A stretch of DNA of 64,000 bases from Spizellomyces punctatus DAOM BR117. Taxonomy: Eukaryota. The stretch lies in the NCBI GenBank assembly GCA_000182565.2, contig KQ257455.1, one strand, 5' to 3'. Under the pieces are notes generated by a model, which was not told where the DNA came from, ran no database searches, and saw only the letters and a list, made by a program, of their open reading frames with translations. The first letter of the stretch is position 1. Each line of letters begins with the position of its first letter. Below, in pieces: positions 44,005 to 54,204 of this stretch. A program made the position numbers and the translations under genes.

Positions 44005-47000
44005 ATGATCGTGGAGCGCAAGCCCCTTAGTCTTCCTCCACCGGTCGTCTTTGCTCCTAGGCCAATTCACACGACACTACAGAATGCTCACAGTGTAGTT
44101 CCCCCACCACTTCCACCCACTCCTCCGCCGCCTCCATTTGATCCCTCAGCTCCGCTCCCTTCCTTAAATGATATAAAGCAGGGCGAGCATGCCGCGTCGC
44201 CCGCCGATGCCACAGAAGGGTTGACCGAGGATACGCAGCTGTTAAATGGAACGTCGACTTCAACGTTAACTGATACATCTGATTTGAAATCACGACTTTT
44301 ACGGGCCAGAGAGAATTCGTTGAGAAAGATGCATGGTGGCGAACCACCAAGGAAGGTAATGTGGTGAATTTGTTTATGCTCTGCTGCGGTCCTTGGTTTT
44401 CAGACATAAGGCTTCGAATCTACTTCAAACGAGAATCCTTGTGTTAAATAGCGTTTGATGACGGTTTTAGCCGCCGCAGTACGATTTTATATATGCCGAT
44501 CATGATTCTATCGAAAATGAAATCAATGAATTCTACAATTATCAAGACAAAGCACACATCCTGGAAGGGAAAGTCCTTTTTCATTCGGATTTTGCTAGTG
44601 GTATGGGAAAATGGTGTGCCTGCTTCTCAAGAACTGTCTGTAGCAGCCGCTTATTACGTTCGCGTTCTATCAGAGTGGGCATCCGCAAGCGCCAAAGTCC
44701 GACGCGACTACATATCATTACTGCTCGAAAGACTCGAGCTCAGAGACCCGGAAGAGCGCTATACGGCCGCGAAGAAGCTTCTTTACATTGCCCAAGGTAC
44801 GGGAGTGGATGTGTGAGAAAATGATCTGGCTTCGCATTAACCACCACACGTAGGTGTTTTTGCTGAAACATCAGGGCAAGAAGAACAGCTGCGCAATATC
44901 AGAGAGTACAATAAGCTGCTTTTTGAACTGGGTGCCTTAGAATATTACTTTGGAGCTGTGAAAGTGGTCTCGAATACGCTTGATGTAATCTCGCGAGTAA
45001 CCGACCCACAAGTGACAGCAGCTGAAAGACAAGTCGCCATGGACCTAGCAAACGGAGAGACCTCTGTGTACCTTAGTCTTCTGTGCCTCATGGTTGAGGT
45101 GAATGCAAAAGATCCGAGATTGGCTAATGAACTCAGTACGTATGGCGGTAGTAATGTATAACATCGGACCCAAACTTATCGACATGATCACGTATCGTGT
45201 AGTGGATGTGAATCCAACAATGGCTGGGTATCTTTTTAGCTTGGTTGCCCAATTGGCGGAGGGTAACCGCAAGCATTATCCCGTCAAAAAGGTATGATAT
45301 GTTGGGTTGTGGAACGACCAGGGTCGATCATTACTGAACATTTCTTGCTCCAGCTCTTGTTATTGTTGTGGAAAGTGCTGCTTTGTTCGGTTGGGGACAC
45401 GAAACGTTTGAAGGACTTGAAGAACGCTTCACGGGCAATAGAAGGCCTACCCCGCTCACCATCAGACAGTAGGTATCGTGTGAGAGGCTTTCTTTTGTAC
45501 TTCATGAATATGCTCACCATAAACAGATGTTTTTCTAAAGTCAACGCCCCAGGATTACCACAATTACCATCTTATCACCGCAACCAGATACCCCACATAT
45601 GTCACACCCAGCGTAGAGTCAATATCTCCAGCGGGAGTGCGATTGGCGGAGCCTCTACCCACTAGTATTCGACGACAATTGCAGCAGCCACCCCTAATTC
45701 AGCCCTTTACCGATGCAAATGAACTTCTTCCACGTGCTTTTCAGGAAAGCGTTGAGCTATATCGCAAGCATAACTACATCAGCCTATCTTCTGTACAAAT
45801 TGCCAAAGAGAAAGCTCGTATGGAAAGGGAAGATCTCAGAAAGCAGAGGGATGATGATGACACAGGAAATCCGGATATAATGGATGGAATGGAAGACGAC
45901 TCGATAAGTCATCTTGGCAGCGAGCGTAAACGGGACGTACAAGCAATGCGACCTGGGGTTAGGGGCGGGGGAAAGAGAGCTAGGAAAGAAGATTCTGCAG
46001 GACTCAAACGGGTTGAATTGCTATACGTGAGTATGCCTATTTTTTGGATACAGTTCAAAGCCGTGGCTCATCTCATGGTTTCTTGATATCAGCGTCATAT
46101 CTTACCAAATATGGGGACGTACATTGGAATGCTTATTCGCCTCCTCTATTACGTTAATCTCGGTAATATAGTAAACTCTTCCGGAGCACCTGGGAAGCAA
46201 GAGGGCGAAGGAACCAATATCAACGGAACTGGTAAAGACACGAATCCCTCGCTACCTTCGCCCGATGCGGGTAAAAGCTCTTGGACTACGGACATCCCGC
46301 TCTCGCAAATGACGATAGAGCAGAAACAGGAGTATTTTGACCGTGTGGATCTTAACCGGCATAAGGAAGTGGTTACAAAGGCCGTGTCTGCAATTTTGTT
46401 ATTGTTGCTGAAAGCTGCCAAGTGTCACCGTAAGTGTGCCAATGAGTGAACCCGACGTACCCAAGTGTTGTTTTGACCACAGTCTATCTACAGACGCCCT
46501 CAAATTTGAATACATCGCACAGCTTTTGGTCGATAATAACTGTGCCATTTTGATCCTCAAGATGCTCAGTACATGGTTGCAGAATCCTCCCGCGCCCTCA
46601 CCAACGCACTCAGACCATGATGCAAGTGGATGGCCTGATGCGCCAAGTTCTGGATCGAGGGCCCAGCAACCCCCATATGGAATGGCTTCAGGCTGGCTGT
46701 CAGCTAGAGATGAACCGGCGGAATTGAAGTAAGCACGACCTTCAAATTTATATAGCTGATAGCGGTTGAACTTACACATTCGGTGCGTCAGTTTTTTCCA
46801 TTTCTGCCAAGCAAACAAGGAGATCGACAGGGCCACTTCCGCGGACGTAGATGCCATGGATGTGTCGAGCGATGGTCAATTGAGCGCCGCCTCCACTGCA
46901 CAGAATGGCATAGATTCTTCGGACAGCACCCACAACTTATCAACGTCAAACTCTCGTAGAGCATCAGTTTCTACGGACAGAAGAACCCCTTCTTGCTTCC

Positions 47001-49772: not shown

Positions 49773-51250
49773 ATGCCGGAATACGAAAAGTTGAGGCCTC
49801 TCTCCAACATTAAGTGGCGCACAGTTTTCTGGGCAGTCATACTGGCTTATTTTGTGAATAATGTACGCACTTCTCGTAGAGAAGGCCACTGTTGAGAGCT
49901 TTGATGTTTTCTCGCCCTGTACATATCACTAACTTGCAGACCTCGTATCCTCGGGACGCAAGGTTTTGTGGCCAAAGATAGTCATATCAGGGTTGCGGTA
50001 CACTATCAAAAACGTCCGTCCAGGGGAGTGTCACAAAGTGAAAGGTATAGCAGATCATATAGGCCATCAGTGCTCGTTGGTGATGGACTCCTGGCACACA
50101 CGGAACTGAGTCGTCTCCTTTTGGTTCAGGGCTGGTAAATTGTGAGGATGTTGTCATAGATCGATCAAGCGGAATAGCAATCCTGTCCTGCGACTCGAAC
50201 CGTGAGTACATATCCTTGTAGTTTGCGCAAATGAGAAGACCAAACGGCAGTTGTAGGTCGCCAATGGAATCCGGTCATGGGTATCGTGCCAAAAGGGGGA
50301 ATTCAAAAAAGTGGAGAACTATACGCATACGACGTAAACGTTAGTTTTTAAATGTGCACGGCCTTTCTTACAAGAAGTAACTACAACAATAATCTCAGGA
50401 ACCAAGTCACAAACCGCAACGACTCTCTACTCCGGACTTTGTCAGAGAGTTCCACCCACTCGGACTTTCCCTGTATACCCTTCCCGATAAAACGACACTT
50501 CTCTACGCCATTAACTTGGCAAATGTCGGGTTTTCCATTGAGATCTTCTCGGTTCATCTACATAACGCGACACTCAAGCATGAACGAACGATCTCACATC
50601 CACTCATCACAACTCCGAACAGTATCACCGTCGTCAATGATAGCACCTTTTACGTGACCAACGATCATGGATTCCCAAGCGGCTTTCTTCATGCTCTCGA
50701 AACGTATTTGGGGCTCCCGCTCTCCAATGTTGTCTACTATTCGGATGGGCAAGCTAGCGTCGTTGCTACCGGACTGGTTCACGCAAACGGAATTACACTG
50801 GATCATGAAAAGAAGCGCATGTATGTGTCAGAGTCATTGGCCGGTCGAGTAAGCGTCTACCGTGTTGATCGGAGCGGTAGTCTGGAGCACGACAGTAGTG
50901 TGGATGTTGGCTTCGTGACCGACAATTTGGACTTGGATCCGGCAACGGGTGATGTGACCATTGCTGGGCATCCAAAGCCGCTAGCACTCGTAGCGTTTGC
51001 AAAATGGGGAGCTGGTCCAAGTGGTAGCATTGTGAAACGAATCAAGGAGCGCAGTATCAACGATGGAAAGGTGGCTAAGGATGATCAGAACAACTGGGAT
51101 GTCCAGACAGTTTTTGAGGATGATGGCAATTTTCACCCTGCAAGTTCCACTGGGGCGTTTGTCAAGCGCAAGGATGGTACGACGAGAATGATCATGACAA
51201 GCTTGTATGGAGAAGACGCATTGACGGATTGTAGTACAGATAATCTGTAG
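49773..51250 (+). CDS. Paraoxonase/arylesterase-like six-bladed beta-propeller lactonase, multi-exon
   Basis: N-terminal hydrophobic anchor, NCEDV, FHPLG, IEIF, TPNSI...FYVTNDH, ANGI, TDNL...AGHP. Confidence 0.8.
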
Positions 51251-51965
51251 TTCATTTGCTTGCCCACAATTGTATTTACATATCGCGAAACAAAAGGTTT
51301 AATGTGCAAGAAGCAACAGCGGAGCCAGTAGTTGGCGCCCTTCAAACTTTTTCAACGAATGTATGCCTTTTTCCGCATGCTAGTCAAAGCATTTTCTATG
51401 GCAGTATTGAGCCTTTTTAGTGAGCCATTGGTGGAGACGGTGTCGAGCACCGCATAGTCCTACAATTTGAATGGATACAGAGTAGATACCTAGTAGCACG
51501 CAGGACATCACCGAGATAAGGAGTAACATGCACTGCTGGCTATTCTGCGATTGCCCACAAACGTCATGGGGTAAGCATCTAGGTACAGCTTGCCGATGAA
51601 ACGCATAGGAGTCTTTGTCTATGAGTGATTTGCATACCTGACCTTGCAGTAGACTATCGTATTCTTGGGCAGAGCAAGTACTTGACATCTTGTGCTGTCT
51701 GTGCGTACGATATTCGTCTTCATCTCGTTTGGGGAGGACCGTGGGAAAATCAAGATAAACAAATGACTCGCTTCACGCGTTTACATGATCTTGACTCGCG
51801 CGCCGTGTGCAAGGGGAACGAACGCACGCCAGGAGGTCTGCCAGGAGGTGGAAACGACGACGATGATTGGGCGTTCATGGCGTGCTCAGAAGAATGACGT
51901 ACGCAGGATACGGAATCTTCCGCTGAGAATTTCGAAATGCAAAAAAAAGCGCAGTCCCCCTGGGT

Positions 51966-51973
51966 TATAAAAA
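51966..51973 (+). promoter_or_regulatory. TATA box upstream of a structured non-coding segment
   Basis: TATAAAAA in an intergenic region, about 40 nt before the structured segment. Confidence 0.5.
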
Positions 51974-52006
51974 GGCACCCTCTCTCGCATCCCCCCCACT
52001 CGCTCT

Positions 52007-52273
52007 TCAGTACTCTCACCTTGGGACGTTGGCGTTAAACTCAACTCAGTCGAAAAGTCTTAACCGGATAACTTTAAAGGCCGTTGTAGTAATGCAACGT
52101 GATACCTTTTTGAGGTGGGCGCCTGGGACTGATCGTGTGCGCGCGCCAGAAATGGTAGGAGCAACGACTCGCCGGAGCCTTCGGGAGATGATGGCATCCT
52201 CTTCGGAGGAAGGGCCTGTGATAAAGGGTGAAAAGGATGAAAATGAGAGACTGATATTTTCTAGAGTACATTC
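52007..52273 (+). ncRNA. Candidate structured ncRNA, class unassigned
   Basis: End-to-end pairing GTACTCT/AGAGTAC, a GNRA hairpin CGTTGTA-GTAA-TGCAACG, two cUUCGg hairpins, nested AGGCC/GGCCT, an ACA-TTC 3' end and an upstream TATA. Confidence 0.5.
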
Positions 52274-52629
52274 AAAGTATCCTTGTGGTTTAGACATGAA
52301 AACAAATATCAAGCAAGGATCGAAGCAAACATAGCTCGGACGAGAAGTGCGATTGCTAGGCTCTCAGCAATAACCCAGTTTTGCCTGACTGGTTCAGTCT
52401 TTTTGTTACAGTTAATGCACCTGTCGTAGCATTTCCGGGAACTCATGAGGACTGAATTGGATTGGAATGACAATGACAGGTTAACTTGTTGCACAATCAA
52501 AAGACGTTGGTCTTGTTGGCCATGCAAACAGGTACGTTTACGCCAGCATGTTAACAAAAGCACATTGATGCTAAATCCAATTCTATGGTTTTAGACATGT
52601 CTATATCCTAGCGCAAAGAAATTGTCCGA

Positions 52630-54204
52630 TTAAGAGTAACATGCACTGCCATCGCTATTCCATGGTCCGCAAACCTCGTCGTTTGGAGTCGGCTGTCTGT
52701 ACATGCTATTCTTTGCAAAACCGAGACACTCATCAACGCGGGCGAATTTATAGTTCTTTGATAAAAAGTACTCGATGGCTTGCTGGGCGAGAGGTTTGAC
52801 AGGGGGAACCTGACTAGCAAGCTGGCCCTGGCCCTTGGGACGGAAGTCGGCTGTAGTGTTCCATACGTCATGATTCAAGGTGATAAAACGAGAAGTAGCC
52901 GCGGTCGAACCAGCCGTCTGCGTTTGGAATTCCTTTTGCATATCGGCGACCTGAGCTGCTATTGTAGCACCGTGAACAAAAGGGTTCCAGTCGACTGGAT
53001 CAAGATTCCAGGATACGATGGCTCCGGTGGTTTTCAGCGTGGTATCGGTAGAATAACCAAGTCCCCGCAGAATCTTTAGTGACGTCTCATCATAATCGCC
53101 ATACGGTGGCCGCATGCACCTGGAAATTTGAATATTTAGTCGCCATTTTCAAATAGTGCCTTTATCTCCATGCTAGACCAAGACGTACGTTGGGATAGTT
53201 CCGAGAGTTTCCCTAAATGCATGATTCATTTTTGTCATTTCGTAAGTAATGTTGTACTGGTCAGAGATGCTCGAGAGAAGGTCAATGTGCGAAAAGGTGT
53301 GACTGCAAATCTAGAAAATCGTATCTCGTTTAGGGCAAGCGATCAGACAATGTCAAAGTTGGGAAGGGCAAACCTGATGTCCAGTATCAAATGCCTTTTT
53401 GACAACATCCTTCAGAGCAAATATGCCCGGCAGAGGGTTCTTTGTGTCTATATTCTTCCAATTGAGACCATTGAGGAAGAAAGTGACTTTGACATTCTTG
53501 GAGTTCAAGTAGTCAAGTAACCCCGAGGTGAGCACAGATGGTCCATCATCAAATGTCAATGCGATAACGCCACTCTTTGCACACTGAGTATACACTTTGG
53601 GAAGCTTTCCGTCATCGCAACGACCCCACGCGGATTGGCAACCTTGGCCACAGTGCTCGGATGTCACTCCTGCCCAGCCCCATTGACTGCAACAAAGACC
53701 CGGAGCAGCACGATGGTTCACGTCGGGTCCACATGCTTGGTCGATGTACGCTAGGGGGACGCTTTGCCGGCGATTGTGAGGTCTGTTGGTCGAACCTCCA
53801 AAACCCTGACCCGGTGGGATTGCTATGCCAATACCCGAGGCAGCTTTCTTGGCAGCTTCCCTGATCTGGTCCTTGTTCGCCCCCCTGTTGGGGCCAACAC
53901 GAGCGGGGGAAAGAGGATTGTTGACTAGTTTCTCGGAAGGAATATTCGGTTGACCCGTTTGGACCTGATTGAGACCGCCAGTATGAACAGGTGGTCCGGC
54001 ATTATCTGTAACCTGGATTCACAAAAAAAAGTGTACAATGGGACATGGAGTGGACGATGCGCCATTAGATCATGTATAGACAGGGTGTAAAGGAGGAGGG
54101 GATTGGAAAACCATTCTTACAGTTGGTTCTTGTGGAGCAGGCAGAGCTTGGACGGATAGGACGACAAATCCGCACAAACTCAAAAGTAGTCGTTGAAGCA
54201 ACAT
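52630..54204 (-). CDS. Secreted chitin/polysaccharide deacetylase (CE4/NodB) with a hevein-type CBM18 domain, multi-exon
   Basis: Signal peptide MLLQRLLLSLCGFVVLSVQA, P/Q-rich linker, CCSQWGWAGVTSEHCGQGCQSAWGRC (CBM18), TFDDGP, HTFSH, RPPYG, LNHD. Confidence 0.9.

Follow-up and report, generated by a model that had tools for sequence, protein, structure and literature searches.

A candidate promoter-bearing unit and its putative short non-coding transcript between convergent genes of Spizellomyces punctatus

Fungal solo long terminal repeats (LTRs) and other promoter-bearing retroelement remnants, such as the delta and sigma elements of yeast, form the class that we take to be the nearest comparison for the element described here. 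This element lies at positions 51966-52273 of a 64,000-nucleotide stretch of contig KQ257455.1 (assembly GCA_000182565.2, one strand, 5' to 3') from Spizellomyces punctatus DAOM BR117; the whole stretch is called the window throughout, and positions are counted from its first letter. An earlier note, made from the letters alone, had proposed at this position a TATA-driven, highly structured and independently transcribed RNA, perhaps of a new class, in an intergenic region with no credible open reading frame (ORF). The follow-up brought in three points beyond that note, namely a conserved block upstream of the TATA box, multiple sequence variants of the unit in public runs, and a codon-phase signal on the opposite strand. 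According to PMC8216456, earlier screens found structured RNA candidates in Pezizomycotina.

A constant TATA box and multiple related sequences

We tentatively read the locus as one member of a small family of units that each carry a promoter and give a short non-coding transcript on the + strand, with no selected global fold, and the hairpins seen in it as local features of a G+C-rich sequence. The unit would extend over about 51716-52259 and would begin with a promoter block of some 250 nt that ends in a conserved TATA box, followed by a hypervariable stretch of about 50 nt at the start site and then by a conserved stretch of some 160-200 nt. RNA polymerase would initiate about 40 nt past the TATA box (about 52005-52009, + strand), such that the product would be a transcript of about 215-255 nt without a usable + strand reading frame. 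A unit of this kind would be lineage-restricted and multicopy, as made by repeat or retroelement remnants or by young long non-coding RNA genes.

Related sequences were obtained from two public runs found in one search and compared with the window over 51000-53500. One (X1) is a root metatranscriptome, that is, an RNA library represented by contigs, and for the other (X2) no run type is on record; stretches without a contig prove nothing about absence in either run. X1 gave one contig of 214 nt, of which letters 56-214 align to 52063-52220 with three other letters and one gap (about 97% identity over 158 nt), the differences including T>C at 52108, A>C at 52186 and an inserted A after 52103. 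Its first 55 letters correspond to 52005-52062 and are too diverged for alignment, and no X1 contig within the compared range covers the upstream block or the flanking genes.

X2 revealed far more diversity, with 42 contigs that all fall within 51592-52742 and that distribute over identity classes of 99% and above (12), 95-99% (14), 90-95% (14) and below 90% (2). Records 2, 3, 5, 6 and 9 are identical to the window and the others are 85-99% identical. Single contigs have a depth of about 3, and the summed depth reaches 15-31 over 51756-52175 as opposed to 2.88, from one contig, over 52260-52742; over the upstream block (51716-51965, called the U block below) the sum is 11.5-31 against about 2.9 in the flanks. 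Because the depth bin 52260-52343 amounts to exactly one window-identical contig (2.88), the depth arithmetic suggests that the extra X2 copies extend to at most 52259. The equal depths of the individual units point to several copies of a unit at about 51716-52259 in one genome, a strain mixture or an RNA data set being other possible sources of the same pattern. The X2-covered stretch of 1151 bp (51592-52742) also includes 115 nt of the coding sequence of the neighbouring deacetylase gene, and no X2 contig lies on the 592 nt to its left or the 758 nt to its right within the compared range. Record 2, an identical contig of 512 nt, matches just 51592-51760, and its further 343 letters occur nowhere in 51000-53500.

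Comparing these sequences along the unit revealed that the TATA box is a constant island, kept both where contigs lose similarity on its left (before 51964) and where they lose it on its right (behind 51976). From 51976 to 52062 the sequences cannot be aligned, and loose contig ends occur at 51976, 51996, 52022 and 52063. About 40 nt downstream of the TATA box, an initiator-like TTCAGT (52006-52011), so called by its likeness to the initiator consensus, and the left end of the X1 contig (about 52005-52008) fall within a few bases of each other. Variable sites are then unevenly spread, with six sites and an indel in the 43 nt of 52063-52105 as against four sites in the 115 nt of 52106-52220, and two related contigs end at 52220 (X1) and 52216 (X2 record 8). 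The U block has 10 substituted sites with no common phase and four indels. That X1 lacks the upstream block, even though this block is equally conserved and deep in X2, argues against plain carry-over of DNA into the RNA library.

The window copy itself differs from its relatives at two places in the core. All five contigs covering 52108 (X1 and four of X2) have C at this position, where the window has a T that gives it a private T5 run at 52107-52111, and after 52103 the window lacks an A found in most related contigs. It may thus be an odd member of its family, or else it may carry sequencing errors.

No usable reading frame was found on the + strand of the candidate. A 101-codon frame at 52029-52331 was rejected, as it has no relatives, has variants on second codon positions and is broken by the insertion after 52103, and the other frame has TGA at 52100 and 52130. 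Given the absence of a usable + frame, and given an insertion that breaks any frame running across 52103, a short non-coding + transcript is the simplest reading. An independent + strand transcription unit is therefore plausible from the letters and the contigs taken together, and this much of the proposed independently transcribed RNA stands on the strong and constant TATA box, the TTCAGT, the start of the RNA-library contig and the lack of a + frame, its strand and ends being only those that these features suggest. The statement that the region has no credible ORF holds for the + strand and less well for the minus strand, where an ATG-initiated ORF runs from 52197 to 52060.

The U block contains TGACTC at 51764 and 51793 (51764-51771 and 51793-51800) and TGACGTA at 51895-51901, which presumably resemble bZIP sites of the Gcn4/CpcA type and the ATF/CREB type, respectively. 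The TGACGTA lies inside an 18-nt inverted repeat (51702-51719/51888-51905).

Sequence elements and fold measures of the candidate

All elements that had been listed for the candidate were found where the earlier note placed them, including the TATA box, the GUAA hairpin and the AAGGCC/GGCCT closure. GTACTCT at 52010-52016 is complementary to AGAGTAC at 52263-52269, TCAGTACTCTCA at 52008-52019 is complementary to TGAGAGACTGA at 52244-52254, CTTCGG occurs twice (52179-52184 and 52201-52206, the two cUUCGg loops), and an ACA stands at 52268-52270. Against 2000 dinucleotide shuffles of 52000-52275, a perfect terminal helix of at least 7 bp has P=0.035 and at least two CTTCGG have P=0.0045. These values are no evidence taken alone, because the stretch was picked for such features from 64 kb, which has room for about 230 segments of this size.

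Global measures gave a different outcome from that expected of a highly structured RNA. The minimum free energy of the 276 nt is -82.6 kcal/mol on the + strand as against -79.97 +/- 5.13 for shuffled sequences (z -0.51), 56 of 200 dinucleotide shuffles match or beat it, and the minus strand has z -0.61. Sub-windows range from z +0.23 to -2.16 on the + strand, and when other boundaries are set for the unit the range is -0.77 to -2.16 on the + strand and -0.49 to -2.19 on the minus strand. The multibranch core at 52072-52226, with z -2.16 (+) versus -1.30 (-), is the best + strand sub-window apart from a 36-nt hairpin pair (52082-52117), which alone reaches z -3.5 and does so on both strands alike. 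Over 52075-52195, the ensemble energy shifts by a mean of -0.09 kcal/mol across all 363 possible single substitutions, so the predicted fold is not one that mutations tend to damage. The 11 natural variants show no bias to preserving the fold when compared with random ones (energy test, P=0.34 on the + strand and 0.098 on the minus strand). On these measures the density of RNA-like structure is no more than chance, and the suggestion of a new RNA class is not supported either, the energy being no better than that of dinucleotide shuffles, an outcome that the earlier note had itself named among those that would refute it, and the variants being no gentler than random changes. As a general caution, hairpins capped by UUCG or GNRA loops beside a TATA box are insufficient to call an RNA gene.

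Taken site by site, the variants relate to the predicted pairs in a less uniform way. The 10 variable sites comprise three one-sided pair-preserving changes, one pair-breaking change and no double compensatory change; 52090 U>G retains the GNRA loop, 52088 A>C disrupts one pair, and the remaining variants fall where loops or junctions are predicted. A rough estimate makes this pattern about as improbable under neutrality as the codon-phase signal described below.

Several observations weigh against the tentative reading of a promoter-bearing non-coding unit. Neither strand nor ends nor the number of copies can be read from the contigs, and an RNA library may contain contaminating DNA. The 64-kb window holds no second copy, and pattern scans of the JGI metagenome, GTDB and IMG/VR collections returned no true homologue. 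TG..CA pairs, the form that LTR termini take, occur five times with flanks that match over 4-6 bp (the best 6 bp, at 51622/52597), which is about the number estimated for chance. Tetraloop-capped hairpins number at least three (P=0.004, shuffle mean 0.34), which leans to a real fold, as do the pair-keeping or pair-improving variants at 52081 (C-G to U.G), 52087 (U.G to C-G) and 52186 (G.A to G-C or G.U). Finally, eight of the 10 variable sites (52081-52186) fall in one codon phase, that of the third positions of the minus-strand ORF (permutation P=0.0075), a bias that is unexpected for a purely non-coding unit.

The scans for relatives went through short patterns. A 21-nt pattern from the most conserved stretch matched one JGI metagenome locus and one metagenome-assembled genome of Burkholderiales, both over 22-33 nt and at chance level, while IMG/VR had no match for this pattern nor for a second one, and a full-text literature search with sequence strings from the locus found no match.

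Were the cautious reading true, the locus would be an ordinary unannotated element between convergent fungal genes, whether a repeat that carries a promoter or a young non-coding transcript.

Competing readings of the conserved core

The alternative that survives best, which we regard as rather unlikely, takes the core as protein-coding on the minus strand, either as a small ORF or as the first or terminal exon of an unannotated gene beginning at ATG 52197. Codons 1-31 would be under purifying selection, the window copy would perhaps be frameshifted, and the + strand structure would be incidental. Besides the phase bias itself, six of the nine third-position changes are synonymous, and within codons 1-31 (52197-52105) this holds for four of five changes, the fifth being D>E; this part of the ORF may thus behave as though constrained at the protein level. 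The ORF is the only ATG-initiated open frame of the phase in question, and a pyrimidine tract with CAG behind it lies just upstream, at 52216-52260, the place at which two related contigs (that of X1 and record 8 of X2) stop. The density of variation jumps just past codon 31 (52101-52103), beside a GT at 52105-52104, but this GT stands in a poor context by the donor consensus. With the insertion of the relatives the frame stays open across the printed part of the X1 contig, as read from its letters, and codon usage (+0.057 per codon) is at the low edge of that of exons in the window (0.052-0.215), the corresponding minus frame of the U block having -0.109 per codon.

Other results speak against a coding function. 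The 1-nt insertion after 52103 (5/5 in X1 and 7.48/10.6 of depth in X2) shifts the frame and alters everything past codon 31, where one variant also introduces a stop (codon 32), so the copies have no common C-terminus. When codons 1-31 are counted by themselves, the phase signal comes down to four sites. The 66-residue minus frame had no relatives at E<=0.001 among 1.84 billion protein representatives, with no relative among proteins of near length and none at E<=1 among 42 word-sharing candidates from longer proteins, and it matched no Pfam family. The upstream block has indels and no phase, the X1 contig is collinear with the genome and thus has no splice joint, and a coding model would leave unexplained why a TATA box is conserved on the + strand, 40 nt away from the end of the contig. 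A further minus-strand ORF at 51380-51688 (102 amino acids) was rejected as a second exon or main ORF, with -0.03 per codon and no Pfam family; it belongs to a 119-codon open frame at 51380-51739 (102 codons from ATG 51688), which begins just past the unit in the minus direction and includes a hydrophobic stretch. If the codon signal were true, the locus would be a conserved small peptide gene overlooked by every annotation.

It is also possible, and in our judgement unlikely, that the unit has no function at all, in which case it would be neutral DNA whose apparent conservation comes from recent duplicates or close strains, and the RNA-library contig would be DNA carry-over or read-through. 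This would fit the similar variant density of the promoter block (about 5%) and the downstream block (about 4.5%) as well as the missing fold signal, and an RNA library with contigs lacking ends and strand is no proof of transcription. On the other side stand the highly uneven variation along the unit, the constancy of the TATA box between variable flanks, the codon-phase bias, and the X1 contig, which should have been accompanied by the equally conserved upstream block if DNA of a repeat had been carried over.

That the locus encodes a structured small RNA from a new, lineage-restricted family is distinctly unlikely on the present measures. The upstream TATA box of such a gene might serve RNA polymerase III (Pol III), with termination at the T-run 52257-52260, and the RNA would have a terminal stem (52008-52019/52244-52254) that closes a multi-hairpin core and is followed by a 3' U tail. 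The three tetraloop hairpins, the two C(UUCG)G loops and the 7-bp terminal helix would belong to this fold, as would the lower z of the multibranch core on the + than on the minus strand; the changes at 52087, 52081, 52186 and 52090 are compatible with it, four others lie in loops or junctions, and only that at 52088 breaks a pair. The family also lacks an internal T5 run (52108 being C), the first T4 run after the start coincides with the end of the extra X2 depth, and the RNA-library contig is restricted to this segment. However, the whole unit has z of only -0.5 to -1.1 on the + strand, single substitutions and natural variants show no sign of a fold being protected, and the features rare among shuffles are those for which the region was chosen. 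The 5' 55 nt, which contribute half of every closing helix, are the least conserved, some contigs end at 52216-52220, the best Rfam score is 15.7 bits, and the codon-phase signal has no explanation at the level of RNA. A maintained fold, if true, would mean a new fungal small RNA family, found in a root metatranscriptome.

An extended version of this idea, which we hold to be improbable, would see here a lineage-restricted, multicopy small RNA family of filamentous fungi of no described class, with its own conserved TATA box, a length of about 255 nt, a terminal stem, a U tail and a tetraloop-rich core; in a bolder form of it the locus would be bifunctional, its core being read both as a structured RNA from the + strand and, from the minus strand, as a peptide of 31 codons.

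Last, the locus could be taken for a diverged RNA of nuclear RNase P or RNase MRP, a reading that is close to refuted. It would have P1/P2 stems and a P3 hairpin as well as a CR-I-like GAAAAGUC, with GAGACU as its partner in P4, and the pairings 52010-52016/52263-52269 and 52016-52022/52226-52232, the hairpin 52025-52051, GAAAAGTCTT and GAGACT (52247-52252) can be arranged in the P1-P2-P3-P4 order of these RNAs. However, the RNaseP_nuc and RNase_MRP models matched neither at gathering score in the 64 kb nor at E<=10 in the sub-range searches, the consensus of CR-IV and CR-V could not be placed by eye in 52217-52270, several copies would be unusual for such an RNA, and the expressed relative in X1 reads CAAAAGTAT where the window has GAAAAGTCTT (52052-52061) despite about 97% identity in the core, CR-I being the most conserved element of RNase P and MRP RNA. 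Given this difference, the RNase P-like hint of the earlier note is not supported.

The remaining RNA families gave no better candidates. No Rfam family reached its gathering score anywhere in the 64-kb window, in agreement with the earlier impression that the candidate does not convincingly match U1-U6, U3, signal recognition particle (SRP) RNA, RNase P/MRP RNA or the thiamine pyrophosphate (TPP) riboswitch, and ARAGORN found no transfer RNA or transfer-messenger RNA in the same 64 kb. Sub-range searches at E<=10 returned only asX2, CRISPR-DR57 and JPX_1 (13.8-15.7 bits, far under their thresholds) with a query of 901 nt, and only CRISPR-DR57 and sR47 (the latter, the best box C/D model, at 10.5 bits, where 40 are needed) with one of 291 nt; all four families were rejected as chance matches at 10.5-15.7 bits.

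The end of the candidate in ACA-TTC had been likened to an H/ACA small nucleolar RNA (snoRNA), a likeness that does not hold up, given that there is no hairpin-hinge-hairpin-tail arrangement, no complement for a basal stem at the ACA at 52268 and no Rfam H/ACA match, and that the ACA lies beyond the block conserved in relatives. The H/ACA snoRNA that the earlier note saw at 18.3 kb is not a member of a catalogued family either, Rfam having no RNA gene in the 64 kb. Box C/D snoRNAs carry RUGAUGA towards the 5' end and CUGA towards the 3' end, joined through a terminal stem, and U3 has box A/A' in addition; this class was rejected for want of a TGATGA, with ATGATG only at 52188, in the middle of the molecule, and CTGA at 52129 and 52251. 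SRP RNA was rejected because no SRP model matched and the CCA-GAAA-UGG hairpin is without the conserved symmetric-loop motifs that flank the GNAR tetraloop of helix 8. For the small nuclear RNAs (snRNAs) with an Sm site, A U4-6 G, the candidate offers only CCUUUUUGA, which is UUCUU in all relatives, and AUAUUUUCU, and no snRNA model matched. Telomerase RNA was set aside in the same way, as no template-like complement to a telomere repeat lies near the locus, the sole CCCTAACCC being at 45964 on the minus strand.

The locus and its likeness to known systems

The candidate sits in a gap of about 1.2-1.4 kb between the converging 3' ends of an arylesterase-like gene and a chitin deacetylase gene (Table 1). 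As these genes converge on the gap and neither requires a promoter there, it has space for an additional unit. Other Pfam matches in the window are Noc2, RNA12/YME2 and an ABC transporter, and the ORFs of the window are short and interrupted, as intron-bearing genes would be.

Table 1. Coordinates of the features at and around the candidate unit
Feature	Position	Strand	Remark
Arylesterase-like gene	50393-51250	+	Pfam
Upstream conserved block (U block)	51716-51965	+	Promoter-like; no coding signal
TATA box TATAAAAA	51966-51973	+	No variant reported inside
Variable leader with initiator-like TTCAGT, P3-like hairpin and GAAAAGTCTT	52005-52062	+	Probable 5' end of + transcript
Conserved core	52063-52220	+	Multi-hairpin segment; on the minus strand, 5' leader plus ORF
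Minus-strand ORF, 45 codons	52060-52197	-	ATG 52197-52195, TAA 52062-52060
GUAA-capped 6-bp hairpin	52083-52098	+	Variants 52087, 52088 and 52090 inside
5-bp hairpin UCCUC(UUCG)GAGGA	52197-52210	+	No variants reported
Tail up to TTTT run (52257-52260)	52221-52260	+	3' halves of closing helices 52226-52232 and 52244-52254
CBM18-NodB chitin deacetylase	53353-54018 and 52630-53148	-	Pfam

With respect to hallmarks of transposition, no terminal inverted repeats were found at the unit. A 22-nt direct repeat (51515-51536/52628-52649), 91% identical and non-random, flanks 1113 bp that contain the whole unit, and a weaker similarity continues for about 60 nt, to about 51591 and about 52710. The right copy covers the final codons and the stop of the deacetylase gene, and the left copy encodes an identical SACYS string. 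The repeat may be the scar of an insertion or of a local duplication. A decayed duplicate of the chitin deacetylase was tried and rejected, as tblastn of the deacetylase exons against 51251-52627 gave a best E of 0.05 in a database of 1.4 kb, which is at chance level, and BLASTP between the two C-terminal regions flanking the unit found nothing.

About 130 nt past the candidate, at 52387-52404, the + strand has a hairpin, GACTGGTTCAGTC, with TTTTTG after it. It was the sole place flagged by a scan for sigma-70 promoters and intrinsic terminators (as a hairpin plus T5), a scan that is not applicable to a fungus. The hairpin is probably part of the 3' untranslated region of the deacetylase gene, which is encoded on the opposite strand.

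Among known systems, H/ACA snoRNAs share with the candidate an ACA (52268-52270) 3 nt from its proposed 3' end and an ANANNA-type string at 52186, but the CTAGAGT before the ACA has no partner beyond the putative H box. The small ORF genes of filamentous fungi are similar in their short ATG frame, their mostly synonymous third-position variation, their short transcript and their presence in an RNA library, whereas here the C-terminal third is not conserved, no homologue exists among the proteins searched, codon usage is marginal and the strongest promoter element faces the opposite way.

Pol III RNAs with a TATA box (U6, 7SL, RNase P/MRP, vault/Y-type) come closer in layout, in that the apparent 5' end comes some 35-40 nt after the TATA box, the ends of the candidate can pair (52008-52019/52244-52254) and are followed by UAUUUU, and the conserved block ends at the first T4 of the consensus, for a length of about 255 nt. 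Unlike these RNAs, the candidate matches no covariance model, the window copy has an internal T5 (52107-52111), and the 5' arm of the terminal stem is hypervariable.

Solo LTRs and related retroelement remnants differ from the candidate in that it has no TG...CA termini with a 4-6-bp target duplication beyond chance and no CA at its right edge (at or before 52259), in that no internal retroelement genes lie near it, and in that its copy number would follow from a single run whose type is not on record. As in solo LTRs, though, there appear to be several copies of 85-100% identity with an enhancer-like block that has factor sites of the stress type, a TATA box and a transcribed segment, the transcript would be short and non-coding, the taxonomic spread is restricted, and the element belongs to no catalogued RNA family.

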